This document shows positions 688 to 31,617 of a DNA stretch of 32,000 nucleotides, piece after piece. A program made the position numbers and the translations under genes. How positions within the stretch are numbered: position 1 is the stretch's first letter; every line of letters begins with the position of its first letter. The notes beneath the pieces were generated by a model. It had not been told where the DNA came from and made no database searches. It was given only the letters and a program-made list of their open reading frames with translations. The DNA is from Erysipelotrichaceae bacterium (GTDB lineage Bacteria > Bacillota_I > Bacilli_A > Erysipelotrichales > Erysipelotrichaceae): positions 840,001 to 872,000 of the forward strand of contig OY760660.1 of NCBI GenBank assembly GCA_963663995.1, read 5' to 3'.

Positions 688-688
688 T

Positions 689-1228: not shown

Positions 1229-1229
1229 C

Positions 1230-2075: not shown

Positions 2076-2077
2076 TC

Positions 2078-6052: not shown

Positions 6053-6073
6053 AGGTACTCCTGTGTCCATTAA

Positions 6074-6082
6074 ATTTTATCA
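6074..6082 (-). promoter_or_regulatory. Possible extended -10 element (TGATAAAAT) for the 6052 transcription unit
   Basis: The minus strand reads TGATAAAAT, 21 nt upstream of ATG 6052 and just downstream of the hairpin at 6109..6129. No convincing -35. AT-rich DNA produces such matches easily. Confidence 0.3.
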
Positions 6083-6108
6083 TAAGTGTTATTTATATTA
6101 AATAAATT

Positions 6109-6129
6109 AAAAGAGGTTCTACCTCTTTT
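6109..6129 (-). terminator. Rho-independent terminator-like hairpin after the LCP gene
   Basis: Perfect 9-bp inverted repeat aaaagaggt / tct / acctctttt, starting 7 nt after the LCP stop (6136..6138). On the minus strand it is followed by a T-rich tail (ttttaatttattt). This is the only sizeable hairpin I found in an intergenic gap. Confidence 0.55.
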
Positions 6130-6135
6130 AATAAG

Positions 6136-8667
6136 TTATGGAGTAGTTGAAGGTTCTGTAACAGTAGGAGCGACATATTTGTAAACTTCGAATGTAACAA
6201 TAGTATCTTTCCAAACTGTCTTAAGTTTGATAGTACCAGCAACAACGTTTTGTGATTTGATAACCCCATCTTTAGTTTGGTCAGCTATTTCGACTTCTAT
6301 ATAATTACAAATCAATATATTTGTAGAACATAAGTCAGTATCTACAACTGTTTTAAGTTTATCTTTATAATCTAATAATTTATAACCTTCACCATAAACC
6401 TGTACAGCTAAATTTTCCTTAACTTTAATTTTTGACTCTGCAATAGGAACAGTTTTCACTACTGTATTGAGTAGAATTGAATCAAGCGTTGGTACATAGG
6501 TAACGACGATATTATTCTTAGAATACATATTTTCTTCAACCCAAGATTTTGCTTCTTCTAGTGTCCAAGTAAGCATATTAGGTACAATTACTGAATAATT
6601 ACTATCCATAATCGTTAAGTTAAGTGAATCTAAGTTTCTCACATCAGTCCATTCAACAGGAGATTGATCATATACATAACCAATAAAGCTCTTATCAAAA
6701 CGTACATCTGTTTCAGGAATAACAGTGTAAGTTAATTTCACATTATAGTTGTTTGCCCAATCAATGACTTTACTGATAAGTGTTTTTGTTGTAGTGAAAT
6801 CGGGTAGTTTATAGTAACATTCATCATATTTCATATTGTCGCTTATATTACAGTCAAGATCATGTTTTATAACTTTTAATGACAAATTTGAAAAGTTACT
6901 AGTTTTAATACCATATCTAACACTTTGTCCAACAATGTAATTATGTTCAACATCAGATGTATATAATGCGTTCCCAGATTTAATTTCTTCTACAGAAAGT
7001 GTAATCCCTCGTGTTGATGCCCATTCTCTTGCCTTCTCTAGAGTCCAATCGTTATAACTCATCGTTGGCATGTAATCCGGAAGTACTTCATGAATTTCTT
7101 TTTCATCATATGTTCTTGAAAAATAGTCTTCTCTGTATAAAACCAAAGATGCATTAAACTGAACTGATAATTCATCAGTAATATTAGTTGGTTGTGCTAA
7201 ATTTGATTCCATTAAACTTCTTAAATCAGCTATTGATCCTTCATAAGGTTTCATTATCCATAACGGTAATTGTAGTTCTTCGTTATAGAAATAATCAGAA
7301 TATCCTAATACTCTTGAACCAGTAGTTAACAAAATTGAATCAGTTGTTAATCCTGTTTTATTCATAGTCCTTAATAATAAATTAAAGATATCAATCATTT
7401 GACTTAATGGCATGTTTGTTTGGACATTTGCACCTGCAGCATCTAAAACTTCAATGGCTCTATTTATATCTTTCAATTCTAAAGTTCTTTGTATTATTGA
7501 CTGAATAACTGCTTGTTGGTTGACTTGTCTAGTATAATCACCATTTGGCATATGATATCTCTCACGAGCTAAAGCTAAAGCCTGTTCACCTGTAGCCCAA
7601 AAACCACCTTCTGGTACCCAAACTGTATAAGTTCCACGCTGATCATCAGAGTTTTGACCAACAAATTCAACTGGTGAAGTTAACCACACTTTATCCAGAG
7701 CATCTACAATATCCACAACCCCTTGAAAATTAACCGTTAAATAATAATCAATATCAATACCAAATAAATTTGAAACAGTATCAACCGCACATTCTTTACT
7801 TACTGCATAAGCGTGACCTAATTTATCCTTTTCTTGATTGGGATAACATGCAATAGGTACATAACTATCACGAGCAATACTAGTCATAGTAATTGATAGC
7901 GTTACAGGATTAAACGTTGTTAAAATCATACTATCTGAACGTCCACCATCTGTTCCAAACACCAAAATGGTAAATGGATCTTTTGTAACATCTAAATCAG
8001 AACTTTCATTAATTACTTCGTATGTATAGTTAAAGGTATAAACAGTATTTGTCTCTTCTAAAAACGTATTATACCCTTCATAATCTCCATATTGTTTTTG
8101 ATAATCTGCTGGTAATACCGCTATATCAATATCATTGTTAAAAAGACCAAGTAACATTTCATTGTAAGAAATATATTCAACATAACTTACATTAAGTCCC
8201 AAATCTATAATTTCATTCTTAACATATGCATTTCGATCATTTTCATCAGTGTTTGATAAAACACCAAACTTTGCATTATTTAAATCTTCAACAGAAGTCC
8301 AATCATTATGTTGGTAGGATGCAAAAGCAGTTTCAACTGTTGTTTGTTGGTTTCTGTCAACAATAACTTGATTAATACTTGCATTAATTCTAATAAGGTA
8401 ATAATTCCCAAATAATGACATTACTAGAAGAATGGACATAAGAATATATCCACCAATCCACAATAGTTTTCGTTTCAGGATATTACCTTCGATGATTAAA
8501 ATGGCTGAACCAATAACTAATAAGTACAATATAAAAAACAATGAAGCATATATTGTTATATTTAATTTACTATAACTGACGCTTTGAATTAATAAAAATG
8601 TCAAGCTAATAAATGAGAATATGATTGCTGTTAAAGCTGTATAATTTTTTACGGTTTTTTTAAACAT
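6136..8667 (-). CDS. LytR-CpsA-Psr (LCP) family glycopolymer-peptidoglycan ligase with C-terminal PASTA-like repeats
   Basis: 843 aa with N-terminal TM helices. LCP core: FTILVFGTDGGRSDSMILTTFNP, SIARDSYVPI, GHAYA, TVNFQGVVDIVDAL, ARERYHMPNGDYTRQVNQQAV. The C-terminal ~310 aa holds 3-4 repeats of PASTA-like pattern. RBS AGGGAG lies 8 nt upstream of ATG 8667. Confidence 0.85.
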   Translation of the reverse strand: MFKKTVKNYTALTAIIFSFISLTFLLIQSVSYSKLNITIYASLFFILYLLVIGSAILIIEGNILKRKLLWIGGYILMSILLVMSLFGNYYLIRINASINQVIVDRNQQTTVETAFASYQHNDWTSVEDLNNAKFGVLSNTDENDRNAYVKNEIIDLGLNVSYVEYISYNEMLLGLFNNDIDIAVLPADYQKQYGDYEGYNTFLEETNTVYTFNYTYEVINESSDLDVTKDPFTILVFGTDGGRSDSMILTTFNPVTLSITMTSIARDSYVPIACYPNQEKDKLGHAYAVSKECAVDTVSNLFGIDIDYYLTVNFQGVVDIVDALDKVWLTSPVEFVGQNSDDQRGTYTVWVPEGGFWATGEQALALARERYHMPNGDYTRQVNQQAVIQSIIQRTLELKDINRAIEVLDAAGANVQTNMPLSQMIDIFNLLLRTMNKTGLTTDSILLTTGSRVLGYSDYFYNEELQLPLWIMKPYEGSIADLRSLMESNLAQPTNITDELSVQFNASLVLYREDYFSRTYDEKEIHEVLPDYMPTMSYNDWTLEKAREWASTRGITLSVEEIKSGNALYTSDVEHNYIVGQSVRYGIKTSNFSNLSLKVIKHDLDCNISDNMKYDECYYKLPDFTTTKTLISKVIDWANNYNVKLTYTVIPETDVRFDKSFIGYVYDQSPVEWTDVRNLDSLNLTIMDSNYSVIVPNMLTWTLEEAKSWVEENMYSKNNIVVTYVPTLDSILLNTVVKTVPIAESKIKVKENLAVQVYGEGYKLLDYKDKLKTVVDTDLCSTNILICNYIEVEIADQTKDGVIKSQNVVAGTIKLKTVWKDTIVTFEVYKYVAPTVTEPSTTP

Positions 8668-8678
8668 ATTATTACTCC

Positions 8679-9329
8679 CTAATAAAATCTAACAACTTCA
8701 ATACGACCATCTTCGCGTTCTATTAAAGTAATAGCGGCTGAATTTGGGAATAATGTTGTATCAATAATTTCACTTTCTTTATATGTCCAAGATAACTCAA
8801 TATAAAAACTCAAATATGATGTTCCATAATAATCATAATCAACACTATAAGAAGCTATTGAATCAGAAACTGTTTCAACTTCAACCAAATCTGTTAAAGC
8901 GATATTAGTATTTATATAGTCATACATTTTATTGTAATAATAAAGGCGAGATGAAAAGTAAAAGTTAGTACCTTCTTCAGGCATGATAAATTCACTACCA
9001 CCTATATCGTATACCCCTGCTTTATTACTCCAAGTATAATAATCTGCAACAAAACTTTTTGCGACTAACTCAGCTATGACTAGTCTTTGGGGATTATCAC
9101 TTTCAATTTCTGAGGTTAATTTGTCAAATAAATCTCTCTCTAAAGAAGTTGGATTACCTTTTAATGAATAATAATCATTAGAATTAATGACTTGCTCTGC
9201 TTCAGATGAACTATTAGACATAATCCCGAAAACAAAAATAAATATGCCTAAAAAGAGTGTAACAATAAATACTATTAGGCCATAATATAATTTTCGATTA
9301 CGATGAAATCCTTTTATAAATTTTTCCAT
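8679..9329 (-). CDS. Hypothetical membrane-anchored extracytoplasmic protein
   Basis: 216 aa with a single N-terminal TM (YYGLIVFIVTLFLGIFIFVFGI) followed by a Tyr/Ser-rich soluble domain. No family recognised. It lies between a YfhO gene and the LCP gene in the same operon. Confidence 0.6.
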   Translation of the reverse strand: MEKFIKGFHRNRKLYYGLIVFIVTLFLGIFIFVFGIMSNSSSEAEQVINSNDYYSLKGNPTSLERDLFDKLTSEIESDNPQRLVIAELVAKSFVADYYTWSNKAGVYDIGGSEFIMPEEGTNFYFSSRLYYYNKMYDYINTNIALTDLVEVETVSDSIASYSVDYDYYGTSYLSFYIELSWTYKESEIIDTTLFPNSAAITLIEREDGRIEVVRFY

Positions 9330-9369
9330 TTTTTACCGCGTCAGATAATAATTAGAGTAGATTTATATT

Positions 9370-11946
9370 CTAACTAATCTTTTTCTTTCTTCTCCTGTTG
9401 ATAAAATTAATACTAATGAGAATTGCAGATATTAATGTTACCCATGCTCCAATTTTTAAATATTTAGGAAAATACTCTGCGTTAATTTGATAATTGCCTG
9501 GTGGTAATTTAAACCCAATAAAGCCACCATTAATTTTCTCAAAATTTATTTTATCGTTATTTGCGTAAATTGTCCATGAATCATCAAATGCAATTGATGT
9601 GACAACATATGATTCATTATTTAATGTTATTTTTGCTTCAAATGAATTCTGTCCTATTTCAATATCATTAGCAAAGCCTTTTGATATCTTGCTGTACCAC
9701 TCACCATAATAGTCAAATGGCTGATCTATATACAAATTGTTAATAAATTCTTCTTCTGGTACATTATATAAATTACTTACTCTAACTTTTATTTGATCAA
9801 CATAAGTATCACAATAAAGACTTACATATTGAGGTTCATAATTATAAAAGGATTTAACTAATTCTCCTCCAAAGTATGCATCAATCCAAACTTCTTCACT
9901 ACGTGGTAATTCAACATAAACTGTAAAATCTTTTTTAGCTTCTTCAAAATTCAGTTCATAATCTGTCCCAAAACTATTAATAAATTCTAAATTGTCGATA
10001 TATGTAGGCTCTGTAACGGGTGAATCATATGTAATAACTTGATTCATCAATGTCCGCATTTTATCCAATGTTGATAACTCTAACCATGCATTATAGTTTA
10101 ATGTATTATTCATACTATAAATAAAAGGTATTGGATAATTGTTTTCGTAAACATCTACCAGCTGATCACTATAAACAACCTGCATTAAATTAGAGTAACC
10201 ATATGGTGCAGCTGCATTATTCGTTAAATCAAACCAATATTTTGAAGCAAACATTTCTTTATACTGCCATTTACCGATATTGTTTGTAACAACCCAACCG
10301 CCTGCACTAGCGATATTGTTTTGAATAAAATCATCCACATTAAAGTTATATACAGAACTATAAAAAGTAAATCCCATATATTCTTTGCTCATTGGATTAT
10401 TAAAGCCTGCATTCTCTAAAACATCGATTCGATAAATCCCATCGTCATATTTTTTAATAGAATCAATTACTGAAGTATTATTCAACTGATAAGCTGGAAT
10501 TTCAGATGCTTTCATTGAAATACTCGAAACAGGATTAAAAAACATATTATACATAGAATATGCACCATCAAAACAAATCGTTAATATTAGTAAATATTTA
10601 AATATTTTATTTTTTTCAAAGTACCATAATGAAAGAAAATAGATAAAAATAACAGCTGATAAAACAATCACATTTCTTTTTGCTATATTGAAATAAATTT
10701 CTTCATTTTGTAATCCATACCAACGTGAGATTAAATAAGTGAATCCTAATAACCCAATTACAAGAAAAGTACTTAATAGAAGTAATTTCTTGTTTATTTG
10801 CTTCAGATCATTAAGTATCAATGAAACAACATAAGCATTAATAAAAATAATGCCAATCATCCATCGCGTGTCACTATTACCTTGAAGTAGAAAATATAAA
10901 CTTGGAAAAAGCAATATCGTGAAGTAAAAAAGATATGTTAATAATAAACTATTTCTTTCAAAGCTTTTTTTATAGACAAGTAGTTGAGGAATTATTAACA
11001 TACTTATAATTAATGAATAAACAGCTGATCCCCCACTATGTCCATAAGAAAGTACAATATTCTTATTCACTAATGGATTAAAGTTATTTCGATCAACCAC
11101 TGGTTGTAGAAAACTGCTTATGTATCTAAATGCATCTCGTAATGAAATCATTGAAAAAGATGAGTTAGTGGTAGTGATACGTGAAGTGGATAAAAGTAAT
11201 TGTAAATTAGGTAAAAATATTACTGATCCTAAGCCTAATCCAATTATATAAATGAGTGTAAATTTCAATCCATCTTTAATAGTATCTGATAAGTTAAATG
11301 TATTCTTCTTAATTTGATAGCGAACTAGTGTGTAAATAAGAATAAAAATGGAAAACAAAATTGTTAAATAAGCATTTATGATAGCCATTACTGCTACACT
11401 AAAAATTAAACCATAGATTTTTTTAGAATCATCCAGATAACTCTCAATAAAATATAGAATTAAAGGGACAAAAATCAAAACATCAGTAAAAAAAGTGTAA
11501 TTATAATAGCCCATTACAAAACCATTGAAGGTTAAGATACTTGCACCTGCATAAATAGCAATTTTATTTGTTCTAATTTTTGAGAAATATAAATATGAAG
11601 TAAAAAATAATAAGAATAATTTTAAGATATTCACAAACATGAATGCGTATGGAATAAATTCAATTTTAGGTAAAATAGCTAATAATATCCAAAATGGTGA
11701 AAATAGAAAGTAATATCCATATACAAAGATTGATGCCCCAAAATAATGATTCCAATCCCAGAATGTTACTCCTTTTTCTCTGACAAGATTATAACCTCTC
11801 ATAATAAAACGAATGACTTGTTCAATCATGTCATAATGAAATACTTGAACAGATGAATTAAAAAATATGTAATAAGAGATTACAGTTATTAAAACTAAAG
11901 CTGTAACATAAATTGGCCAATGTTTTGTGAAATGATTTTTTAGCAT
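9370..11946 (-). CDS. YfhO-family polytopic membrane glycosyltransferase (GT-C)
   Basis: 858 aa, the same size class as B. subtilis YfhO. A multi-TM N-terminal half is followed by a large extracytoplasmic domain and a final TM. The C-terminal signature VTSIAFDDSWTIYANNDKINFEKINGGFIGFKLPPGNYQINAEYFP is shared with the two other YfhO modules in the window. Confidence 0.85.
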   Translation of the reverse strand: MLKNHFTKHWPIYVTALVLITVISYYIFFNSSVQVFHYDMIEQVIRFIMRGYNLVREKGVTFWDWNHYFGASIFVYGYYFLFSPFWILLAILPKIEFIPYAFMFVNILKLFLLFFTSYLYFSKIRTNKIAIYAGASILTFNGFVMGYYNYTFFTDVLIFVPLILYFIESYLDDSKKIYGLIFSVAVMAIINAYLTILFSIFILIYTLVRYQIKKNTFNLSDTIKDGLKFTLIYIIGLGLGSVIFLPNLQLLLSTSRITTTNSSFSMISLRDAFRYISSFLQPVVDRNNFNPLVNKNIVLSYGHSGGSAVYSLIISMLIIPQLLVYKKSFERNSLLLTYLFYFTILLFPSLYFLLQGNSDTRWMIGIIFINAYVVSLILNDLKQINKKLLLLSTFLVIGLLGFTYLISRWYGLQNEEIYFNIAKRNVIVLSAVIFIYFLSLWYFEKNKIFKYLLILTICFDGAYSMYNMFFNPVSSISMKASEIPAYQLNNTSVIDSIKKYDDGIYRIDVLENAGFNNPMSKEYMGFTFYSSVYNFNVDDFIQNNIASAGGWVVTNNIGKWQYKEMFASKYWFDLTNNAAAPYGYSNLMQVVYSDQLVDVYENNYPIPFIYSMNNTLNYNAWLELSTLDKMRTLMNQVITYDSPVTEPTYIDNLEFINSFGTDYELNFEEAKKDFTVYVELPRSEEVWIDAYFGGELVKSFYNYEPQYVSLYCDTYVDQIKVRVSNLYNVPEEEFINNLYIDQPFDYYGEWYSKISKGFANDIEIGQNSFEAKITLNNESYVVTSIAFDDSWTIYANNDKINFEKINGGFIGFKLPPGNYQINAEYFPKYLKIGAWVTLISAILISINFINRRRKKKIS

Positions 11947-11947
11947 T

Positions 11948-12886
11948 CTATTTATTCTTTAATTGTTCTATAGAATCATAAACATATGGTTTGTTTACAG
12001 TTCGTTCTCTTAATAACATATCTAAATATTTTAAAATCATTGAAAGAACTAGAAATAATCCCGAGAAACTAATCGTTAAAAACATCATGGAAGTCGTCCA
12101 ACCACTCGCAATATTTTTTACAACTAGATATGATCCAATGACAAATGCAATCATTAATATTGAGAAGACAAAAAACAACATGGATAGACCTATAGAAATT
12201 GTTGATGCGATATGTGAATAACGAATCATAATCTCATAACCTAAATTAAATTTTTTAGTAAAACTCAATTGATTATAATCTGTTTTAAATGTGGGTTGAT
12301 AGAACTCAACAGTGCTAGGTAAACCAGAATAATGATATGACGCTTTTCGATAATTGATATTTGTGTTTAAAATACCAACTCTATTAATCGCTCTTCTTGA
12401 TAAGATTCTTGCTGTTTCAGTGTACAATTTCATATTTCGAGGAGATGAAATTTCGAGTAAACGATAGAACACTTTATTAAAAAATGATGGTTTAACATTG
12501 GGGGATAATGCCACGATATCAAACCCAGTTAAACTTTTTTTATAGATGTCAATTAAAAGTGAAACATCATAATCTATACTTAAAGTATCAAATTCAAATA
12601 TATAATCACCAATCGCTACTTTTTGGCCTGATACCATTGCTAATTCTAAACCGTGAAAATATGATAGGTTTAAAATTGTAATAGGTGCATGAAACTTGTC
12701 TTGAATTGCTTTTACTTTATCAATTGATTTATCTTGAGAAAAATCATTTATTAAAATAATTTCAAAATTCGTGAAATTTTCAGTAAACATTTCATCGATT
12801 TCAAGTAAATTCTTTTCAATAAAACTTTCATCATTGTGAACATATATAACCAGAGAAATATAGTTCTTTTCTTTTTGTACGTACAT
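11948..12886 (-). CDS. Divergent GtrB/CsbB-like GT2 with C-terminal TM hairpin; catalytic motifs degenerate
   Basis: 312 aa, colinear with the GtrB-like proteins (GT2 domain plus two C-terminal TMs plus a terminal KPYVY box). However NDGS is replaced by NDFS, SRNFGKE by SYFHGLE, and DADLQDPP by FDTLSIDYD. RBS AAGGAG lies 5-6 nt upstream of ATG 12886. Confidence 0.7.
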   Translation of the reverse strand: MYVQKEKNYISLVIYVHNDESFIEKNLLEIDEMFTENFTNFEIILINDFSQDKSIDKVKAIQDKFHAPITILNLSYFHGLELAMVSGQKVAIGDYIFEFDTLSIDYDVSLLIDIYKKSLTGFDIVALSPNVKPSFFNKVFYRLLEISSPRNMKLYTETARILSRRAINRVGILNTNINYRKASYHYSGLPSTVEFYQPTFKTDYNQLSFTKKFNLGYEIMIRYSHIASTISIGLSMLFFVFSILMIAFVIGSYLVVKNIASGWTTSMMFLTISFSGLFLVLSMILKYLDMLLRERTVNKPYVYDSIEQLKNK

Positions 12887-12894
12887 AGGGCTCC

Positions 12895-14013
12895 TTACAA
12901 TACATCATTTAAATCATAAATTGTGTTTATTTTACCTGAGAAAACTGTAATAAATGTTGGGTTTTCAGAATATTGTTTAATAACTGTTGGTCGTGAGTCA
13001 TCAATTTCAGTTGTTTTTAAGATAGGTTTAATCGTGAAAAGTGAATCTACATATTCTATTTGAATATCGTCTCTAAGATATTTTTTTGCTAAATGATACA
13101 TCTTTGGCCATGCAGTTACAGGTTTACAAGGACAAGTATTACAATTCTGCATATTGTGTGGCGTGCAATTTGAACAACCCTTTTGACAATCATATGTTGG
13201 AAATTCATCATATGACGTTTTATGAGGAGTAAAGGTAACCGATGTTAATGAATGATAGCCAGTCTTACCGAATGGCATTAATGAAAAGAATGGACCATCC
13301 ATCACTGTAATTCCTACATTTTCAATCGAACTTGATACCTTACATAAAATAATTTCGCAAAGTTCATATTTAATATTTAAGCTTGGAAAATTCATTAAGC
13401 TCAAAATATGATTTGTCCCAGCATATGTCGCATTTAATAGATAAGGTGTTAAATACTGATTATTTTCTTCATCTATCAAATATAAATCATTTTCTTTTTT
13501 AATAGCTTTAATTCTTTGTTTATATTTAATTGTAAAGTTTGAATATGTTTGGCATTTTGCCATTAACTCATTTCCAACAATTTTCGCATCAAAAGAATAT
13601 TCGACAGTATCATAAACACCATCGGTTGTACCACTTGTAAAAAACAATGATTCTGAAATCGGACTATGAGGTATATTATTATCTATACAAAATTTCTCAA
13701 ATTGTTCACCATTTGTCCAAGAAAAGTCATCTGAAATGGCATATACTTTTCTAAATTCATTGTTGATTGAAGCAGGAAAATCTTGTACAAATTTATCAAA
13801 ATAATCTCGTGATTTTACTGCAGTTGATCGACTTCTTGGGTAATGATAACCATTGTGTACACGAGCTTGATTTATGTAAGTTCCGCGCATAAAAAAACTT
13901 TCATCATATTCCAGAACCAATACATTCATTCCTTTTTCAAGGCTTTTTATAGCTGCGTATAAACCATAAATTCCAGCACCTAATATGATGCGGTCATATT
14001 TGTTTTTAGACAT
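12895..14013 (-). CDS. FAD-dependent oxidoreductase (DAO / hydroxy-acid-oxidase-like) with Cys-rich insert
   Basis: 372 aa. N-terminal dinucleotide fold RIILGAGIYGLYAAIKSLEKGMNVLVLE, then a VHNGYHYPRS motif reminiscent of the LhgO / glycerol-3-phosphate oxidase-type DAO family. Six Cys occur in CQKGCSNCTPHNMQNCNTCPC. AGGAG lies 7 nt upstream of ATG 14013. Confidence 0.8.
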   Translation of the reverse strand: MSKNKYDRIILGAGIYGLYAAIKSLEKGMNVLVLEYDESFFMRGTYINQARVHNGYHYPRSRSTAVKSRDYFDKFVQDFPASINNEFRKVYAISDDFSWTNGEQFEKFCIDNNIPHSPISESLFFTSGTTDGVYDTVEYSFDAKIVGNELMAKCQTYSNFTIKYKQRIKAIKKENDLYLIDEENNQYLTPYLLNATYAGTNHILSLMNFPSLNIKYELCEIILCKVSSSIENVGITVMDGPFFSLMPFGKTGYHSLTSVTFTPHKTSYDEFPTYDCQKGCSNCTPHNMQNCNTCPCKPVTAWPKMYHLAKKYLRDDIQIEYVDSLFTIKPILKTTEIDDSRPTVIKQYSENPTFITVFSGKINTIYDLNDVL

Positions 14014-14824
14014 TAAAGACTCCTACTTGAAATGCTATATCTCTAATATACGTTAAAGTAGATTTTATTTCATCAATATTTGGTCCTGATTTCATTTCAA
14101 TTGAAACAAAATTTGAATAATTTAGACTTTTTAATATCTTCAATAAATCTATGTGTAATTCTTTGTGATTTTTGTCTATAAGAGCTAAATATGGTTCACT
14201 GATATGAACATGTTTAATAAATTTAATTAATTCGCTATTTAATATATCCACAATATTTTCTTCATTTTCTATGATAGTTCCTAAATCTAAGTTAACACCT
14301 ATCATTTCTTCATTAATCTCTTTTACGAATGCGAAAACTTCACTACTTGTATTTAAGAAGTTTGTATTATAAATTTTTGGATTTGCTTCTAAAGCAATAT
14401 TTACATTGAAACGCTTGCACATTTTCCCTAACTCTTTAAAGAAAAATTTGGCATTAGATAATTCATCATTAGTATTAACATTTCTTATTGAGGGTGAACC
14501 AAATACTAAATTAGGAATCTTCATTGTTTGCGCAAACATACAAATATTTTCAAACTGATTTAAATAATATTTAACATTTTTATCAGAACAAAAAATGGGT
14601 TCTTTCTGACCAAATAAAATTGACTGCATGCTTATCGGTTGAATGTTAACTTGTTCAAGTTGATTTATTACATGAATCAAATCATTTTTAGATTGAAAAT
14701 ATGGTTTATCAAACAAACGTGTGGGAGCGATTTCTAAGTGATTAATTTCTAAATCATTTAGGATATCATACATTTTATTATCATCGTCTTTAGTCCATGC
14801 AATATTTGAAATAGCTAACTTCAT
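14006..14824 (-). CDS. Sugar phosphate isomerase/epimerase (xylose-isomerase-like TIM barrel)
   Basis: 272 aa with the strand-end pattern of the AP_endonuc_2 / xylose-isomerase-like fold: LEIAP, LVFGSP, IALEAN, VNLDLG, HVHISE, VSIEM. ATGA overlap with the upstream SDR gene at 14821..14824. Confidence 0.75.
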   Translation of the reverse strand: MKLAISNIAWTKDDDNKMYDILNDLEINHLEIAPTRLFDKPYFQSKNDLIHVINQLEQVNIQPISMQSILFGQKEPIFCSDKNVKYYLNQFENICMFAQTMKIPNLVFGSPSIRNVNTNDELSNAKFFFKELGKMCKRFNVNIALEANPKIYNTNFLNTSSEVFAFVKEINEEMIGVNLDLGTIIENEENIVDILNSELIKFIKHVHISEPYLALIDKNHKELHIDLLKILKSLNYSNFVSIEMKSGPNIDEIKSTLTYIRDIAFQVGVFNV

Positions 14825-15756
14825 TTTTGTTCACCATTTATAAAAATTTCAATCGAATTTAAGACCTCATCTTTATTTATCAAGTAATGAGAATCCTTAT
14901 TAAATAAGTTTGCATATTTTGTCCACATATTATAAAACTGTGGTTTTCGTTCTAATCTATTGTTAAATTGAACTTTATTTATTTTTTCATATATTTCATA
15001 TGCAAAAACAGGTTCAGTCGCCAAATTTAAAACTTGTATTTCATTCTTTATAGCTACTTCAATATCACTAAAAAGTCGATTAAGCCCATAATATTGAAAA
15101 CAGTCATCTTGATCTGTAAACATTAAACTTGTACAGTTATTATTCTTAAGTACAGTTAATAATAATTCTGATTGATTCTCTTTCAATTTATATGAACCAT
15201 TTACAAATTCATACGATTTTATAATTTCTTGAAAGTCTTCTACACTTATTTGTGATTGAAGTTTTTGATAAAGAGGTGTATTTAAACTTGCTGGGACAGG
15301 GTTCATAAGATCGTAAATGAAGTTCTTTTTTAAACCTTTCCCAAATAATGCCGGTAATCTAAGAATGGATACTTTCTCAAAATATTTGATAGCTAATTCT
15401 TCAGCATATTTACGATTTTTACCATAGGCATGATGATTACTTACATCAAAAAAAGTAGATTCATCTACTTCATCACAATCTGGGAACACATCAATTGTGG
15501 ATATTAAAACAAAGTATCTGGTTTTAACATTTTTTAAAACATTGAACAAGTCATCAATTGATTTTAAATCTTCTTCTGGATATTGATTGGCATACCATTT
15601 TTGAGCACGAATACCCGCACAAACAACTAAGTCATAATCCTCATTAACAATTTCTTCAATATTTTTTGAATTATAAAGATGTGTAAAGTCAAATTGATCC
15701 TTTAAGTTTGATCCAACAAAACCTGTATACCCTATTAATGCTGTTTTTTTATTCAT
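14821..15756 (-). CDS. NAD(P)-dependent epimerase/reductase-like (extended SDR)
   Basis: 311 aa. N-terminal ALIGYTGFVGSNL (GxxGxxG), then LISTIDVF, and HAYGKNRKYAE at the catalytic Tyr/Lys position. 8-nt overlap with the upstream GtrB-like gene. Confidence 0.72.
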   Translation of the reverse strand: MNKKTALIGYTGFVGSNLKDQFDFTHLYNSKNIEEIVNEDYDLVVCAGIRAQKWYANQYPEEDLKSIDDLFNVLKNVKTRYFVLISTIDVFPDCDEVDESTFFDVSNHHAYGKNRKYAEELAIKYFEKVSILRLPALFGKGLKKNFIYDLMNPVPASLNTPLYQKLQSQISVEDFQEIIKSYEFVNGSYKLKENQSELLLTVLKNNNCTSLMFTDQDDCFQYYGLNRLFSDIEVAIKNEIQVLNLATEPVFAYEIYEKINKVQFNNRLERKPQFYNMWTKYANLFNKDSHYLINKDEVLNSIEIFINGEQK

Positions 15757-16678
15757 TATTTTTTAAATCACTTTCAAAATATTCTTTAATAATATAATTT
15801 GGTCTTCCCTTTATTTCAATAAACAACAAAGCCATATATTCAGCAATAATACTTAAAAATATAAACACGAAAGCAAATAGCCAAAAATAAACAAGAGCAC
15901 TTATACTTTGTTCAAAGTTTTTCTCGATTAATAAATATATTGAAAAGATAAATAAGATTATTACATATAAACTTGTAAACAAAGAAACAAGCTTTAAAGG
16001 TTGGTTGGTTGAGACCAAAATATTATGTTTTGCTAATTTTAGTTTTTTGGGAATATTATATTTAGTAACCCCTGCTGCTCGATCAATATCTTCATAGCCG
16101 ATATAGGTTGTTTTAAACCCCACCCATGACCATATATTTTTAATATATCTTCTATTTTCCTTTAAACTTAAAATTGTTTGCGCAACTTGTTTAGTAAATA
16201 GTCGATATTCTCTTTCATTATTCATTACTTTATCGTTGCTTAAAATATTAAAAATTCGATAGTAAGTTTCAGAGTAAAGTTTAGTAAAGAGTGATTGTGA
16301 TTTACGTGAAGTACGATATGTTCCAACTTGATCATAACCTTCATTTTCAATTTTACTAATCATTTCAGATAATAAATAAGGGGGATCTTGTAGGTCAGCA
16401 TCCATTAAAGCTATTAAATCACCTTTAGCACTTTTTAAACCTGCTTCAATGACACCTTCTTTACCAAAGTTTCGAGATAAACTAATACCAGTAATATTTT
16501 TATCTTTTTCTGACAAGTTTTTAATAATATTAAAAGTATCATCGTTACTACCATCATTCACAAAGATAATTTCATAGTTTCTTTTTAATGATATTAGAAC
16601 TTTAGTTAATTCAAGATAAGTTGTTTCAATAACTGCTTCTTCATTGAAACAAGGGATGATAACTGATAAAGTTTTCAT
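15749..16678 (-). CDS. Polyprenyl-phosphate sugar synthase, GtrB/CsbB-type GT2
   Basis: 309 aa with LSVIIPCFNEE, VNDGSNDDT, SRNFGKE and DADLQDPP motifs, two C-terminal TMs and a terminal GRPNYIIKE box. ATGA overlap with the upstream fusion gene at 16675..16678. Confidence 0.9.
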   Translation of the reverse strand: MKTLSVIIPCFNEEAVIETTYLELTKVLISLKRNYEIIFVNDGSNDDTFNIIKNLSEKDKNITGISLSRNFGKEGVIEAGLKSAKGDLIALMDADLQDPPYLLSEMISKIENEGYDQVGTYRTSRKSQSLFTKLYSETYYRIFNILSNDKVMNNEREYRLFTKQVAQTILSLKENRRYIKNIWSWVGFKTTYIGYEDIDRAAGVTKYNIPKKLKLAKHNILVSTNQPLKLVSLFTSLYVIILFIFSIYLLIEKNFEQSISALVYFWLFAFVFIFLSIIAEYMALLFIEIKGRPNYIIKEYFESDLKNNE

Positions 16679-19600: not shown

Positions 19601-20652
19601 AATACTAAAAGAATTATCATAATGCTATAAAATATTCTATTTATTAGTTTATTTTCTTTATCAAAGATACTTTGTCCTAACATTAATGCTGTGAAAGATC
19701 CGCTAAATAACATAAGTTCACGTGTTTGATAAGTTATAGATTCATAAATAGACGTATATTGTTCAATTCCATTATTATTAACAATTTGACTGATAAAAGT
19801 CGAACTAGGGACAAAATGTGCAATTAACAAATGAAAATATACTCTTATATCCTCAAAATAAAAATGTGAATTTGTTGAATTAAACAATCTTGAATTTTGT
19901 AATAATAATAAGACACCAGGTACTATAAGAATAGCTGATAACAAAAAACCAAGTAAATATAAAGCAATTAAAGGAAATGCACTTTTTAAATATTGCTTTC
20001 TATGTTCTTCAAAAAATCGATAAGTATAATAAATTAGTGTAAAAATCGACAATGTATAAAACAAATAAAAATTCATAATCAACATTAAAGCAGTCATTAT
20101 GGCATAAAAAAAGTAAACTTTCTTTTTCATAGCCAATTCTAAACTTGCAAAATATAAAGGTACGAAGCTATAAAAACTTAAATATATTGGAACTTCTACA
20201 TATTTTAATGCCCAAGCAGAAAAAGTAAACAATAGAGCACCAAGAATTCTTGTATATTTATCCCAGTTTCTAACTCTTCCATAGATGTAAAAAGAAAGAG
20301 CAGCTGAAATAAATTTTAAAACGCTCAATATCATCACTATATTGTAGTAATGATTATTTATAAGAATTCCTAAATAGCTATATATATCTCCAAAAATGTA
20401 ATATGACTTAGCCGCTAAAAAATTATTCCCAAAAAACATATTCCAAGACCAAAAGGGAAAAGTTTTTTGTTTTATAGCATTTACGATTAAACGTCTAAAC
20501 TCAATAAAAAATAAACGATATTGTGTTCTTGAGTCAAACCCAATAACAAAAGCTTTACCCTCAATAATATAAGGTACCATTATGAAAGCAGTAATTAATA
20601 TTACAAAACTAATTAAAATTAATATTGGAAAGTATTTCTTTATTAATTTCAT
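16675..20652 (-). CDS. Fusion of two GT-C-like membrane modules: N-terminal YfhO-family plus C-terminal COG5617/PTPS-related-like
   Basis: Continuous ORF. ORF-track residues 1-777 form a complete YfhO: multi-TM region, extracytoplasmic domain, VTSIAFDKGWKVTVNNESVPIYAVNGGFVGFPINAGDNTIKMYF, final TM, basic tail. Residues 778-1331 begin MKFFKIKRN..GIPSGHDLIYHFSRIV..GYGYPVNLFYPLGLFYIP and form a second multi-TM protein with its own extracytoplasmic domain and terminal TM. The ORF-track start at 20670 is TTG. I prefer ATG 20652..20650, which has GGAAGGA upstream and shares one base with the upstream TGA (TGATG). Confidence 0.8.
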   Translation of the reverse strand: MKLIKKYFPILILISFVILITAFIMVPYIIEGKAFVIGFDSRTQYRLFFIEFRRLIVNAIKQKTFPFWSWNMFFGNNFLAAKSYYIFGDIYSYLGILINNHYYNIVMILSVLKFISAALSFYIYGRVRNWDKYTRILGALLFTFSAWALKYVEVPIYLSFYSFVPLYFASLELAMKKKVYFFYAIMTALMLIMNFYLFYTLSIFTLIYYTYRFFEEHRKQYLKSAFPLIALYLLGFLLSAILIVPGVLLLLQNSRLFNSTNSHFYFEDIRVYFHLLIAHFVPSSTFISQIVNNNGIEQYTSIYESITYQTRELMLFSGSFTALMLGQSIFDKENKLINRIFYSIMIILLVFPIGGSFMHGLSEHSFRWTLFLIFLNIVLAMKYFNKIEFIDLKILKKTSLIISLLIFLNIPVLSMILNVNPFNNTFQWIVFIITIIFIWVIYFVLFKDNKNKKTWIIIISVVEIIFASYLTFNMNPNYKKLDWDFVNKSETVLGKTPDQLNQYLQELDGDYGYYRIYAPYDSIYWYSSLNMNLLYNYSDVKTYDSTYQYSVDNLSKLISLDRGFGWTWNITNPDIIDFASVKYSIVTSESELPHSNFILIGDFYGLPLYLNNQYRPIANSYNFVISYDDYVKNPDISLINQTIIADENDVEIIKTYLSDASSASIKNVEKYQNLLLGDIYSEDRNFVVTSIAFDKGWKVTVNNESVPIYAVNGGFVGFPINAGDNTIKMYFMPEGFKLGAITTFIGFILLIFLIFFEVRKFFKHKNKQQNLMKFFKIKRNLISLTLIPIVFIFPMLLKGIPSGHDLIYHFSRIVGSFELLRSNISELKILPGFYYGYGYPVNLFYPLGLFYIPVYLMDFGLSLILSYKIFAVIITLLTALSMYWTSKYLFKSSSAALLASFLYTFSVYRNYTDFFERAALGEWVAFIFVPLVFLGLYKIINDEKPRAYLLAFSMSGLILTHTITTIVMVIILFIFALFNYKILIHSLNKIKQILFAIFITLGLTAFYWLPLLEMMFSDTFQYQTPWTNLHEHVINNIFQLVFISPQLAVFPNGIEWYLFLIPIIGLIFRFKSIIKNQVLLFSFIISLATLFIVSNVIPINWISFLNFIQFPFRLYFVLTFFLSILTAYFINEIVIEKGKWIQVLTLVLISVQYLYMTNYYYNVKMIGYWYDNFPRYSIEYYYAEFLPESADMDNLAQNASNKVINASNPIEISYSNNQLNYVVDFNQGAYINTQLELPLLYYKGYGAFYDDNGKYILLKTTKDSKSLLNVDLGDIKEGRLYIFYNGTLIQKISGYLSAIFVGLISVIFGLKSFEKIKGNRRFKKV

Positions 20653-22145
20653 CAATATGATTCCTTCCAATAAAAGATAACATCTGTGTCCATTGGAATA
20701 TTATTATAAATTTTAAAGGCTTCCATGTGATAGCTATCTTCTTCTTCGATATCACCAGCATGTATGGTATAGATAGGATAGCGAGGTAACCAAATGCCTG
20801 TTGTATACTGATCTGAATATAGATGATAATCATCTAGTATCATTTCACGTTCATGATAAATATTGGCTACAGCATTATATTTGATATAAAAGGTACGCAC
20901 ATCTATAAATGACATAACAATTAAAATTACGATCATTCCATTTTTTATTAGCCTATTAATTTCTATGATTTCCAAAATTAATACAAAACTTATAAACATA
21001 TAAAATACAGCATATAAAATTAAGCGAGAACCAATAACTGGTGACATCAAAAGGCTTGCACTACTTAAACTTGCAATGCCCATAAATATAATTAAATACG
21101 GTTGTTTTAATTTATAAATATTTAAACGTATTATCTGACTCAAAAGTAAAACAATATAAAGAACCCAAAACAACATTGACCACCACTGTGTCACATCAAA
21201 TAAACGAGCAGTTTGGGGTAAATATTGTATTAATCTTGTGTTTAATAAATATATTATCGCTATTCCATAAACCAGAATACTCATTACAAATTCAATTTTT
21301 GAGAAAGTCTTATAACTTACATAGATTAATAGGCAAGATAGAGAAAAAATAATGACTTTATTTTGAATGAATACATAATTTATAATTTGAGGTAAATTTC
21401 TAAGTACTTTTTCAAAAATGCTTAATGTTTGCCATTCAGGCATAGTAGCTAATCGGATATTTGATCCAGGACTTAAATACCATATGACAAAGGCAATTCC
21501 ATAAAAAATAATCGAAACAATTAGTATCGGATGAACTTTTTTTTGTTTATAAAAATCATAAACAATTAAACTTAAAACCACAAATCCAATAGCTATACTT
21601 ATATTTTCCATACCTAATGGTAGATAAAAAGATGTAAATGCAACTAGGATATAAGAAATCCAATTTTCTTTACCTTTAAATAGTGAATTTGTTATTGTGA
21701 ATAATAATACTATAGATAACCATAAGGGTATTCCATAATAGATAGAACCTGTTATCCAAGTATAGGTTTCCATACGAATATTATCTTTTATAGATACTAT
21801 AAAGAAAAATAAAAATAATAATGATAATTTTTGATTCTCTTTTTTAATAAATGAAGATAACAAATAAAATGTATTGGCAAAAATAAATGCATTTAATAGA
21901 TTCCATATTTCTTTATATTGAATCAGTGTATGCATAGAAAACAGGGTCATTAAACGACCTTCCCAGTGAAAATACATACCAATAGCAGCATCTACAACAT
22001 TAGATTTGACGACGTTGTTATGGAATGCCCAATCATCTCCTGACAAAGGTGTTTTATAGGAAATATAATAAAACAAACAAAAAACAATAGATGTCATCAT
22101 TAATCTAAAACGATTATCTTTTACATATTTGATTATTTCACCCAT
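20652..22145 (-). CDS. Polytopic membrane protein, GT-C-like (acidic DD motif in first external loop)
   Basis: 497 aa, hydrophobic throughout. The first loop after TM1 reads KTPLSGDDWAFHN, placing a DD pair where GT-C enzymes carry catalytic Asp residues. The same feature occurs in the 451-aa protein at 24159 (GFIDDNAY). GAGGG RBS lies 5 nt upstream of ATG 22145. Confidence 0.6.
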   Translation of the reverse strand: MGEIIKYVKDNRFRLMMTSIVFCLFYYISYKTPLSGDDWAFHNNVVKSNVVDAAIGMYFHWEGRLMTLFSMHTLIQYKEIWNLLNAFIFANTFYLLSSFIKKENQKLSLLFLFFFIVSIKDNIRMETYTWITGSIYYGIPLWLSIVLLFTITNSLFKGKENWISYILVAFTSFYLPLGMENISIAIGFVVLSLIVYDFYKQKKVHPILIVSIIFYGIAFVIWYLSPGSNIRLATMPEWQTLSIFEKVLRNLPQIINYVFIQNKVIIFSLSCLLIYVSYKTFSKIEFVMSILVYGIAIIYLLNTRLIQYLPQTARLFDVTQWWSMLFWVLYIVLLLSQIIRLNIYKLKQPYLIIFMGIASLSSASLLMSPVIGSRLILYAVFYMFISFVLILEIIEINRLIKNGMIVILIVMSFIDVRTFYIKYNAVANIYHEREMILDDYHLYSDQYTTGIWLPRYPIYTIHAGDIEEEDSYHMEAFKIYNNIPMDTDVIFYWKESY

Positions 22146-22152: not shown

Positions 22153-23100
22153 TCAAAATAAAATTGCCAATATTAAGTTTAATTTATATTTAATTAAATT
22201 AAAAATAATTTTTTGTTTAATTGAATAAGTTCTTAATAATTCAGCTTTAAACCAATGTGGTACACGTTGTCTGATTTCTAAATTATTTCTTTTATAATAT
22301 GTATATTTATCTTGGAAAGAATCTGATTCTTTTATACGTAAAGTTGTTGCAATTAAACCATGCGTAATAATGTATTTCTGATAAACAGTCTCCCATTTTT
22401 CATCATCAATACCTTTTCCTCTGAAATAACTATCTAAAGAATCAATAGCTGAATAGATATCAAATATTTTAGGATTAATTTGATGAGCTATAGAAGTACT
22501 TCGTTGAACATAAAAATAAAAGGCTTCATTTATATAACTTATTTTTTTAGCATTATATACAACCTTAGGAATTGTTTCTAAATCTTCATACCATTTCCCT
22601 TTAGGAAATCTAACATCTTGAAACAATGAAGTTTTATATATTTTATTGCATGCACTGTTATTTATTAGTAATAAATCTAATGGATTAGAAACATCAAAGT
22701 TCCCAGCACTTGAATATTTCTCTTCATCATTATCGAATACGTATTTCATGTCACAACAAACAATATCGCTCTTTTCAGTTTCACAAAGATCCATCATTCT
22801 TCTAAACATTGTTGTATCAATATAATCATCTGAATCGATAAAAGCTAAATATTCACCTTGTGCATGATCAATTCCAAAGTTACGCGCATCACTGAGTCCG
22901 CCATTAACTTTTTTAAGCACTTTAACTTTTGACTGATTTTCATGTTTTAAAGAACAAGCAATATCAATCGATTTATCCAATGAGCCATCATCCACTAGTA
23001 ATATTTCGAAATTATCAAAGTCTTGATTTAATAAACTGACCATGCATTTCTCAATATAATTTTCTACGTTGTAGACAGGTACAATAACACTTAATTTCAT
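22153..23100 (-). CDS. Glycosyltransferase family 2 (soluble)
   Basis: MKLSVIVPVYNVENYI, VDDGSLDKS, GGLSDARNFG and IDSDDYID motifs; paralog of 2078..3043. The ORF-track start at 23124 is GTG and would lie inside the putative promoter. ATG 23100 gives the canonical GT2 N-terminus. Confidence 0.85.
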   Translation of the reverse strand: MKLSVIVPVYNVENYIEKCMVSLLNQDFDNFEILLVDDGSLDKSIDIACSLKHENQSKVKVLKKVNGGLSDARNFGIDHAQGEYLAFIDSDDYIDTTMFRRMMDLCETEKSDIVCCDMKYVFDNDEEKYSSAGNFDVSNPLDLLLINNSACNKIYKTSLFQDVRFPKGKWYEDLETIPKVVYNAKKISYINEAFYFYVQRSTSIAHQINPKIFDIYSAIDSLDSYFRGKGIDDEKWETVYQKYIITHGLIATTLRIKESDSFQDKYTYYKRNNLEIRQRVPHWFKAELLRTYSIKQKIIFNLIKYKLNLILAILF

Positions 23101-31616: not shown

Positions 31617-31617
31617 T

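Follow-up and report, generated by a model that had tools for sequence, protein, structure and literature searches.

A 32,000-nucleotide (nt) stretch of DNA from an Erysipelotrichaceae bacterium (GCA_963663995.1, OY760660.1, positions 840,001-872,000 of the forward strand), hereafter the window, contains a cassette of five coupled genes in which three enzymes, a short-chain dehydrogenase/reductase (SDR), a triose-phosphate isomerase (TIM) barrel and a flavin adenine dinucleotide (FAD) enzyme, are encoded between two family-2 glycosyltransferases (GT2), the second of which is a GtrB homolog without the DXD motif. The cassette is followed by a YfhO-family protein of the GT-C type (glycosyltransferase fold C). 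We found that these genes belong to a module that recurs across phyla and that we regard, with high confidence, as a donor-tailoring unit of extracytoplasmic glycosylation. In the window, the five genes and YfhO would probably form a three-component glycosylation module in which the donor sugar is remodeled on its lipid carrier before transfer. Both the chemistry and the carrier level of this tailoring are inferred.

Recurrence of the module in genomes, plasmids and a phage

When one genome per species was scanned, the FAD enzyme was found in at least 568 species, across phyla. Cultured carriers include Acetobacterium, Lacrimispora xylanisolvens, Allofournierella massiliensis and Mucispirillum schaedleri. 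We then surveyed the neighborhoods of the 80 best loci from other species, counting components in the 44 loci flanked by 5 kb or more of sequence on each side. A recurrent set made of the SDR, the TIM barrel, the FAD enzyme and the DXD-less GT2 is present, whole or in part, in 80/80 loci, which shows that the gene order is not due to chance. The DXD-less GT2 is found in 44/44 loci, the SDR and the TIM barrel in 34/44 each, and a second polyprenyl-phosphate-type GT2 in 40/44. This second enzyme is small and soluble in 29 of the 40 loci that have one, its nearest named relatives being AglJ, PpgS, Dol-P-hexose transferase and ArnC. A full GtrB-type loader such as the one in the window (GtrB_1) is a minority solution, most genomes using a small soluble DPM1/AglJ/PpgS-like GT2. 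In four loci, the SDR and the TIM barrel are fused in a single protein. In 35/44 loci, at least one large polytopic protein is encoded within 6 kb in the same orientation, often straight after the DXD-less GT2. The families vary: some of these proteins are PMT_2 or YfhO members, and several have no Pfam match.

Many modules also contain putative flippase genes: SMR in Escherichia coli, Citrobacter, Psychrobacter and a phage, GtrA in Cereibacter, and an EamA pair at locus L081. The SMR, EamA and GtrA families act as flippases in known systems. Paired small open reading frames (ORFs) with three to four transmembrane (TM) segments lie inside the module at loci L081, L004 and L009, those of L081 being EamA-like by Pfam. 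Synteny of the module with GT2s, putative flippases and polytopic proteins extends over six or more phyla. The original prediction, made from the window alone, had placed the three soluble enzymes with polyprenyl-phosphate glycosyltransferases and apart from nucleotide-sugar genes, which the survey bears out. It had also linked them to GtrB and YfhO. The first half of that link holds, with a second polyprenyl-phosphate GT2 in most loci, but YfhO is present in 2/44 loci only and the final transferase varies.

The FAD enzyme has more than 8000 homologs, at least 7991 of the 8000 candidates listed scoring at E ≤ 0.001. The best 120 are 55-77% identical to it and come from several phyla, including species of Flavobacterium, Cetobacterium, Clostridium and Anaerorhabdus. 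The closest relative is an Erysipelotrichaceae metagenome-assembled genome (locus L001), with the same gene order and an FAD enzyme 74% identical to that of the window. There, GtrB_1 is still beside the SDR despite rearranged upstream genes, and YfhO and a 216-residue single-TM protein hold the same positions as in the window.

Distant full-length FAD homologs (28-32% identity) are encoded on proteobacterial plasmids. The 10.8-kb Psychrobacter plasmid pA22P4 (L082) carries a module at 2336-8624 and little else beyond replication and mobilization genes. The module encodes the SDR, the TIM barrel, an SMR protein, the FAD enzyme, a 592-residue ORF joining a DXD-less GT2 to a soluble GT2, and a 479-residue polytopic protein. 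The fused ORF (5410-7188) reads from the DXD-less GT2 into the soluble GT2, and the database annotation gives the second half only. In Cereibacter sphaeroides, the set consists of the SDR, the TIM barrel, a barely recognizable GT2 remnant, the FAD enzyme, GtrA and a fusion of a soluble GT2 with PMT_2.

A further version is found in a temperate phage (L092; IMGVR_UViG_3300014635_000026) that encodes a tape measure and tail proteins, an endolysin, an Rz-like spanin, a DNA methylase and a CI-like repressor. Its module (8943-15907) comprises the DXD-less GT2, the FAD enzyme, the SDR, the TIM barrel, an SMR protein 75% identical to that of E. coli, a soluble GT2 and a 522-residue protein with eight TM segments. 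It sits between the lysis genes and the repressor. In serotype-converting phages the equivalent position is filled by gtrABC, and we consider the phage module a candidate serotype-converting cassette. Comparison of the modules of two E. coli strains, Citrobacter, Psychrobacter and the phage shows no mutual BLAST similarity between the terminal polytopic proteins, while the SMR proteins are 47-75% identical. Such a pattern, in which the donor side is conserved and the transferase varies, is the hallmark of three-component glycosylation.

Three further sequences carry a viral label. A 4-kb scaffold from human feces (L089; MT839812.1, "UNVERIFIED: Bacteriophage sp.") encodes at 460-4013 the SDR, the TIM barrel, a soluble GT2 and part of an FAD enzyme that shares 47% identity with that of the window; the phage origin given in its label cannot be verified from the fragment. 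Two IMG/VR "viral" contigs of 180-190 kb (L090 and L091) have an FAD homolog at 9989-11122 (47-48% identical), with none of the other module genes detected within 10 kb of it.

The proposed tailoring enzymes and the partner of the flavoenzyme

The FAD enzyme matches the DAO family (PF01266) with an E-value of 5.3e-6, slightly below the Pfam gathering score. Its AlphaFold model (predicted local distance difference test score 89.6) finds glycine oxidase, D-arginine dehydrogenase, GlpD, sarcosine oxidase and L2HGDH as top Foldseek matches, with TM-scores of ~0.7 and 11-13% identity. Since it exhibits a DAO/GlpD fold, it is not homologous to DprE1, which has a VAO/PCMH fold, and no DprE1-type match was returned by the Pfam or Foldseek searches. 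The original prediction had already assigned the flavoenzyme to the DAO type on sequence, and the structural search agrees. Members of the DAO/GR2 family dehydrogenate CH-OH or CH-NH groups, and we propose, based on the modeled fold, that the FAD enzyme acts as a sugar-hydroxyl dehydrogenase. Two other activities were considered and rejected. A ring contraction like that of UDP-galactopyranose mutase was suggested by protein size and the N-terminal motif, but there is no GLF domain and the fold is that of amine, hydroxy-acid and glycerol-3-phosphate dehydrogenases. Saturation of the polyprenol, as by geranylgeranyl reductase, was discarded because the matches are limited to the dinucleotide-binding motif and the fold is of the DAO type.

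The motifs NQARVHNGYHYPRS, GPFFSxMPF and DDSRP are common to the FAD enzymes of the window and of the E. coli O162 locus described below. Four cysteines, C276, C283, C291 and C294 (CX6CX7CX2C), are nearly invariant in an alignment of 64 close homologs that includes Flavobacterium, Clostridium, Cetobacterium and Anaerorhabdus sequences; the E. coli ortholog is without this motif. They could form a zinc or iron-sulfur site tied to electron transfer in anaerobes.

Direct sequence searches of the PDB with the single FAD and SDR proteins gave nothing informative, and family profiles were needed. The TIM barrel matches PF01261 (9.7e-14) and the NCBIfam models for IolO (5e-10), psicose 3-epimerase (5e-8) and IolE (9e-4). 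Its family profile finds in the PDB D-tagatose 3-epimerase (1.2e-8) and the 3-keto-D-glucoside 4-epimerase YcjR (6wn6; 7e-6). The protein combines the PF01261 fold with a Glu-Asp-His-Glu metal and acid-base tetrad (E146, D180, H205/H207 and E243) that is invariant in 27 family members and through to E. coli. On this basis, we propose that it acts beside a carbonyl, by elimination and/or epimerization. The SDR matches PF01370 (2.8e-6), and its family profile finds dTDP-4-dehydrorhamnose reductase (1.6e-6) and Cap5F (2e-3). The GxxGxxG motif (G9/G12/G15), S86 and Y111 are invariant, and the catalytic lysine is replaced by an equally invariant R115 (YGxNR) that aligns with the lysine of RmlD. The SDR is accordingly a proposed keto-sugar reductase. 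A reduction step following the flavoenzyme is plausible for it, although it is not a DprE2 homolog.

None of the three enzymes has predicted TM segments in the window. A close soluble homolog of known function would have spoken for another pathway, as the original prediction had pointed out; NCBIfam, PDB and family-profile searches found no close characterized soluble homolog for the FAD enzyme, the TIM barrel or the SDR. The scheme it had outlined, in which the trio oxidizes, isomerizes or epimerizes and then re-reduces a sugar, fits the GlpD-type, ketose-3-epimerase/YcjR-type and RmlD/Cap5F-type relatives just described. What may need revision is the outcome, which may be a deoxy sugar and not a simple epimer.

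The second GT2 of the cassette had been described as a degenerate GtrB paralog. Instead, it represents a distinct family and is the most constant partner of the flavoenzyme, found in every one of the 44 well-flanked loci. Its start codon lies within -60 to +30 nt of the FAD stop codon in 74/78 loci, with a median gap of -4 nt. Pfam recognizes the N-terminal half only (PF00535, 4.7e-9), and the protein has two TM segments. Nevertheless, the family profile aligns with Synechocystis GtrB (sll0501) over residues 10-306 (3e-37), and also with ArnC (2e-12) and DPMS (1.5e-8). Homology to GtrB/ArnC/DPMS therefore runs over the full length of the protein, but the canonical metal site formed by DXD and Gln is missing. 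Among 75 members, the second-Asp position is occupied in 63 by one of the six commonest residues, T, L, I, V, A and M, which do not include Asp, and the Gln position is mainly I, M, L or V, with Q in 3/75. In the subfamily of the window, E98-F-D100 is conserved instead of DXD. Elsewhere the metal-site equivalents are LYDHQ (E. coli, whose DXD-less GT2 is not detected by Pfam), NLN (Psychrobacter) and DPL (phage). The juxtamembrane basic motifs SRRAINR and PYRKA are conserved, as is the TM hairpin. We infer that the DXD-less GT2 is probably a pseudo-glycosyltransferase that has kept the side facing the lipid-phosphate-sugar and serves the flavoenzyme as membrane dock or substrate presenter. Since GtrB_1 has a TM hairpin of its own and the DXD-less GT2 is nevertheless kept, its role seems tied to the flavoenzyme and not to the anchoring of a soluble synthase.

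GtrB_1 itself has the hallmarks of an active polyprenyl-phosphate GT2. It matches PF00535 (1.8e-31) and the NCBIfam models for PgfS (1.5e-65) and ArnC (4.8e-42), its alignment shows an intact MDADLQD motif that provides the DXD, and hydropathy predicts two C-terminal TM segments forming the hairpin. Based on these features, we propose that it loads the starting hexose onto undecaprenyl phosphate (Und-P). YfhO (PF09586, 8.3e-57; ~12 TM segments) has the polytopic architecture of GT-C transferases and is the putative extracytoplasmic transferase that uses the tailored lipid-linked sugar.

The E. coli O162 locus and the proposed chemistry of tailoring

The sugar 4-deoxy-D-arabino-hexose occurs in Franconibacter O antigens, among others; strains reported to have it include Franconibacter pulveris G3872 and the reference strains of Citrobacter O4, O6, O27 and O36. 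It has been reported in Citrobacter O antigens as well, according to titles cited in PMC6240886. In E. coli, O101 and O162 have nearly identical O-antigen clusters of the ABC-transporter type, and O162 has an extra 4-deoxy-D-arabino-hexose branch (Liu et al. 2020, PMC7685785). O101, unlike O162, carries an insertion sequence (IS) in the first of the genes between gnd and ugd, and the biosynthetic pathway of the sugar was described as not known (PMC7685785). That these gnd-ugd genes add the branch is a published hypothesis (PMC7685785, PMC13168486). Their role was called hypothetical or unclear in 2024-2026 (PMC13168486, PMC11231755), and it was still presented as a hypothesis in 2026 (PMC13168486).

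We found this locus in an E. coli genome (L084) with wzm/wzt of the O89/O101/O162 type, where seven genes lie between gnd and ugd. Comparison with the window gave 31% identity for the FAD enzyme (6e-56), 30% for the TIM barrel (4e-39), 33% for the SDR (3e-52) and 24% for the DXD-less GT2 (4e-14). All four similarities are full-length and reciprocal, with signature motifs and catalytic residues shared. In E. coli as in the window, a gene for a polytopic membrane protein comes after the set. The two sets differ in gene order, in the final transferase, which is a 452-residue protein with no Pfam match in E. coli and an unrelated YfhO in the window, and in the E. coli set having a soluble DPM1/AglJ-like GT2 and an SMR protein, where the window has a full GtrB-type GT2 and neither ortholog. 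Citrobacter has the same seven-gene module between gnd and ugd, with a different terminal protein. The module is rare in E. coli, being found in 6 plus 1 of 5426 complete genomes; megablast of E. coli genomes returned intact copies only (6 genomes) and no IS-interrupted copy of the O101 type. The E. coli O162 module is the only candidate for the 4-deoxy-D-arabino-hexose side branch of this serogroup. Therefore, the product in the window would most likely be a 4-deoxyhexose or a closely related rare hexose. That it is indeed a 4-deoxyhexose in the window organism we suggest tentatively.

The pathway that we propose would start with GtrB_1, which would load undecaprenyl phosphate with a common hexose taken from a nucleotide sugar. 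The flavoenzyme, with the DXD-less GT2 as membrane dock or presenter, would then convert one of the hydroxyls on the ring of this lipid-linked sugar into a ketone by oxidation. The metal-dependent TIM barrel would take the proton next to this carbonyl, and then either eliminate the β-hydroxyl, as does IolE, to give a deoxy-diketo sugar, or invert the carbon in the manner of YcjR and ketose 3-epimerases. Using NAD(P)H, the RmlD-like SDR would reduce the ketone. The product would be exposed by a flippase whose gene lies at another site in the genome, and YfhO would transfer the sugar to a wall polymer. That the substrate may be a polyprenyl-phosphate sugar is suggested by genomic context, through the obligate pairing of the flavoenzyme with a membrane-anchored GtrB homolog and the presence of putative flippases.

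For 4-deoxy-D-arabino-hexose to be the product, loss of the 4-OH and the configuration at C-2 and C-3 would have to be achieved by the three tailoring enzymes between them, and one chemically economical course takes three steps. Oxidation would occur at C-2, the position that DprE1 attacks on its substrate. Abstraction of H-3 would be followed by metal-assisted loss of the 4-OH through a conjugate-base elimination (E1cB), as IolE does on 2-keto-inositol. Finally, reduction of the resulting 2,3-diketo-4-deoxy sugar would give 4-deoxy-D-arabino-hexose. If the reduced flavin returned its electrons to an intermediate, the net deoxygenation would need only one NAD(P)H and no external acceptor, which would explain turnover in strict anaerobes. 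It is conceivable, but we hold it as a tentative idea only, that the flavoenzyme/pseudo-GtrB pair, the TIM barrel and the SDR make up in this way a new deoxygenation route from Und-P-hexose to 4-deoxy-D-arabino-hexose, non-homologous to known deoxysugar pathways.

Several observations weigh against lipid-level deoxygenation by this cassette. Many hosts of the FAD enzyme are strict anaerobes, which leaves the electron acceptor of the flavin to be explained. The TIM barrel is closer by sequence to epimerases than to the dehydratase IolE, which speaks for epimerization over deoxygenation. RmlD-like SDRs normally bind nucleoside diphosphate (NDP)-sugars, and tailoring may take place on a nucleotide sugar and not on the lipid. 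Conservation of E98 and D100 leaves room for residual or non-canonical catalysis by the DXD-less GT2. In E. coli, the link to the sugar is correlative and comes from comparing two serogroups, the IS in the first gene of the O101 set would be polar on the rest, and with only 24-39% identity between the enzymes of the window and of E. coli, the product could differ. Finally, the 32-kb window contains no GtrA, SMR or EamA homolog, no small ORF with three or more TM segments, and no ortholog of the soluble GT2. Gram-positive systems often carry GtcA away from the cassette.

A different outcome of the same lipid-level tailoring would be pure epimerization to a rare hexose epimer (e.g., inverted at C3 or C4), with the E. 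coli link being coincidental or specific to proteobacteria. Since the TIM barrel has ketose 3-epimerases and YcjR as its best characterized matches, and lies nearer to epimerases by sequence, this remains a serious alternative. Lipid-linked epimerization has precedents in DprE1/DprE2 and in ORF13 of Citrobacter youngae, and the window has GtrB_1 as its loader where the E. coli module has a soluble GT2. However, one GalE-like SDR would be enough for a simple epimerization, and each of the three enzymes has identical catalytic and signature residues in the window and in E. coli, an argument for shared chemistry. We see pure epimerization as somewhat improbable.

Alternatively, the three enzymes could be a cytoplasmic NDP-hexose pathway, the finished rare sugar being loaded on Und-P by a GT2 for use by YfhO. 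That the nearest characterized relatives of the SDR, RmlD and Cap5F, act on NDP-sugars would fit, as would the lack of predicted TM segments in all three proteins, and the DXD-less GT2, with its conserved E98 and D100, could load an unusual donor. Yet the conserved module has no nucleotidyltransferase or NDP-sugar gene, the E. coli and Citrobacter modules consisting of just seven genes. The proteobacterial SDRs, with only ~260 residues, are shorter than typical NDP-sugar-binding extended SDRs. An NDP-sugar pathway also leaves unexplained why there are two polyprenyl-phosphate-type GT2s per module and why the FAD enzyme is coupled to the membrane-anchored DXD-less GT2 in 74/78 loci, and a loading role sits poorly with the NLN at the metal site in Psychrobacter and with an E. 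coli copy that Pfam misses. We consider this explanation unlikely, though still a serious alternative.

The DXD-less GT2 might also be an active, non-canonical glycosyltransferase, making a second lipid intermediate or using a non-nucleotide donor, and not a docking subunit. Its N-terminal GT-A half is well conserved in the Firmicute/Bacteroidete subfamily, with E98-F-D100 and the first nucleotide-binding Asp (D48), and 4/44 loci have no second GT2 within 6 kb. In the wider family, however, the acidic motif is not conserved (LYDHQ, NLN and DPL, with a near-unrecognizable copy in Cereibacter), and a normal polyprenyl-phosphate GT2 is found alongside in 40/44 loci. An active enzyme is thus a quite unlikely explanation, and a docking role remains the one we prefer. 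Lastly, it is highly improbable that the soluble enzymes are unrelated metabolic genes (for polyol-phosphate or ketose metabolism, or for modification of the polyprenol) lying inside a glycan locus, because the weak N-terminal FAD matches to glycerol-3-phosphate oxidase and geranylgeranyl reductase models span the dinucleotide-binding motif only, and, even with GlpD among the top structural neighbors, such a role is at odds with a synteny that spans at least six phyla and is kept both on a small plasmid and at the moron position of a phage, and with an O162/O101 difference that is a sugar residue.

The surrounding locus and comparison with known systems

The coordinates of the cassette and its neighbors are listed in Table 1. 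The ORF table confirms the five coupled genes of the original prediction, all on the minus strand, with overlaps at 16675-16678 (4 nt), 15749-15756 (8 nt), 14821-14824 (4 nt) and 14006-14013 (8 nt). Likewise, the AAGGAG-led start that it had noted at 12886 is present in the sequence: AAGGAG overlaps the TAA stop of the FAD gene and lies 4 nt 5' of the ATG of the second GT2. YfhO, which it had placed directly downstream of the cassette, follows after a gap of 1 nt between the TAG stop of the second GT2 and its own ATG.

Table 1. Annotated features of the window, numbered from its first nucleotide
Feature	Position	Strand	Basis or remark
rmlC	689-1228	-	
rmlD	1230-2075	-	
Terminator-like hairpin	6106-6132	-	12-bp stem, T-rich tail, just past LCP stop
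LytR-CpsA-Psr (LCP) ligase, 843 residues	6136-8667	-	PASTA-like repeats near C-terminus (Pfam PASTA, 6.5e-8)
216-residue single-TM protein	8679-9329	-	No Pfam/NCBIfam match; between YfhO and LCP genes
YfhO-family GT-C	9370-11946	-	Pfam
Second GT2, GtrB homolog without DXD	11948-12886	-	Pfam, family profile
FAD enzyme, DAO/GlpD fold	12895-14013	-	Pfam, AlphaFold and Foldseek
TIM barrel, xylose-isomerase fold	14006-14824	-	Pfam, NCBIfam, profile versus PDB
SDR, atypical extended, RmlD/Cap5F-like	14821-15756	-	Pfam, family profile versus PDB
GtrB_1, GtrB-type GT2	15749-16678	-	ORF table, Pfam, NCBIfam
Double GT-C, 1331 residues	16675-20670	-	TTG start; YfhO and PMT_2-like halves

Between 9370 and 16678 we found no terminator comparable to the hairpin at 6106-6132, just one weak intragenic match. 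This hairpin probably ends the transcription unit of the cassette. Together with the position of the nearest divergent gene, at 23190, it places the cassette within one transcription unit of ~17 kb. A promoter scan of the window (~27% guanine plus cytosine) gave 130 matches versus 141 ± 12 in shuffled sequence, and is therefore uninformative.

Taken together, the genes of the window make up a wall-polysaccharide locus: they include rmlC/rmlD and genes for an LCP ligase, five GT-C-type proteins and eight family-2 glycosyltransferases (the DXD-less one included). The rmlC and rmlD genes lie downstream of the terminator hairpin, at the edge of the window, and their presence suggests that the locus probably makes a rhamnose-containing wall polysaccharide. 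The eight family-2 glycosyltransferases and five GT-C proteins suggest several independent side-chain decorations of one wall polymer.

Six of the eight family-2 glycosyltransferases fall in four synthase/GT-C sets. In addition to the cassette, these are a GT2 at 22153-23124 with a DUF6056 protein at 20652-22145, a divergent pair on the plus strand (GT2 at 23190-24119, DUF6056-like protein at 24159-25514), and a GT2 at 28063-28992 with a YfhO at 25487-28012. The 1331-residue double GT-C, directly upstream of and overlapping GtrB_1, has ~19 TM segments in all; a YfhO domain (residues ~18-760) is fused to a GT-C-like half with a weak PMT_2 match (870-1005). A 687-residue protein (3040-5103) with 10 TM segments and no Pfam match is encoded between two GT2 genes. 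Near the other edge, a minus-strand gene resembling that of 3-dehydroquinate synthase is broken into two ORFs in different frames, one (30475-31020) for the N-terminal and the other (29901-30461) for the C-terminal domain, the cause being a frameshift, decay to a pseudogene or a sequencing error. Its neighbors encode a GalE-like epimerase (28989-29897) and a classical SDR (30951-31643).

Searches of the literature on lipid-linked keto-sugar, FAD, GT-C and pseudo-glycosyltransferase systems returned no description of the module. Two leads were set aside: the Rgg/SHP-regulated locus of Streptococcus pneumoniae (PMC5597970), which has a different gene set, and the eustigmatophyte/Bacteroidetes "ebo" cluster, which we judged unrelated (PMC5133447). 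The earlier statement that no equivalent had been described for Gram-positive three-component glycosylation was nonetheless too strong, in view of the homologous E. coli O101/O162 set (PMC7685785, PMC13168486) and of the SDR acting on Und-P-ribofuranose (PMC11127046).

Editing of sugars on the lipid carrier is so far known mainly from DprE1/DprE2, a validated drug target, from ArnD and from one recent SDR. If our interpretation is correct, the module would add a large enzyme system that edits sugars on this carrier before extracytoplasmic transfer, with a proteobacterial branch of similar size, and it would provide a concrete gene set for the unsolved biosynthesis of 4-deoxy-D-arabino-hexose as well as a new donor for the glycoengineering toolbox. 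It also brings to light a conserved pseudo-glycosyltransferase as the probable partner of a flavoenzyme. Being found on a plasmid and in a temperate phage, the cassette is mobile and may therefore drive antigenic variation in gut and environmental bacteria. Should the deoxygenation route hold, 4-deoxyhexoses would be present on envelope glycans of thousands of species, among them gut Clostridia, Flavobacteria and Enterobacteriaceae, and phages and plasmids would be spreading serotype-converting 4-deoxyhexose cassettes.

Comparison with known systems shows where the module stands. The classical systems, GtrA/GtrB/GtrC of Shigella and Salmonella phages and CsbB(GtrB)/GtcA/YfhO of Gram-positive bacteria, similarly combine a GT2 synthase with a GT-C protein and have a variable, acceptor-specific transferase, but they use unmodified glucose, N-acetylglucosamine or galactose, and have neither tailoring enzymes nor a DXD-less GtrB paralog. 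The ArnC/ArnD/ArnE-F/ArnT pathway likewise comprises loading of a sugar by a GT2, editing on the lipid by a soluble enzyme, flipping by an SMR-type pair and transfer by a GT-C enzyme; the edit by ArnD is, however, the hydrolytic deformylation of Und-P-linked 4-deoxy-4-formamido-L-arabinose (Und-P-Ara4FN), not redox or carbanion chemistry, and the enzymes are unrelated. The YcjS/YcjR and IolG/IolE pairs also make a carbonyl, next to which a metal-dependent TIM barrel removes a proton from carbon for epimerization or β-elimination, but they are catabolic, act on free glycosides or inositols, rely on NAD-dependent dehydrogenases, and have no GT2, flippase or GT-C linkage.

Two other systems epimerize lipid-linked sugars. 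In C. youngae O2, the SDR ORF13 epimerizes an Und-P-linked donor before export and transfer by a GT-C enzyme (Kelly et al. 2024, PMC11127046), and the authors of that study of a three-component pentofuranose system wrote that they were aware of no further enzyme of the epimerase type in the side-chain systems of O antigens (PMC11127046). That system uses a single GalE-like SDR, Und-P-ribofuranose made from phosphoribosyl pyrophosphate (PRPP) and a MATE flippase, with no flavoenzyme, TIM barrel or GT2. In mycobacterial DprE1/DprE2 (decaprenyl-phosphoribose 2'-epimerase), which works with an SMR flippase and GT-C arabinosyltransferases, a flavoenzyme oxidizes the lipid-linked sugar at a hydroxyl, a second enzyme, an NAD(P)H-dependent SDR, reduces the resulting ketone, and GT-C enzymes use the product outside the membrane (PMC11127046). 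There, a UbiA-type synthase (DPPRS), not a GT2, makes the lipid sugar from PRPP, there is no TIM step or pseudo-GT2, and DprE1 (VAO/PCMH fold) and DprE2 (a classical SDR) contrast with the DAO/GlpD-fold enzyme and RmlD-like SDR of the window. The module thus follows a DprE1/DprE2-like logic with non-homologous enzymes, an added TIM barrel step and a pseudo-GtrB partner, and it is both widespread and mobile.

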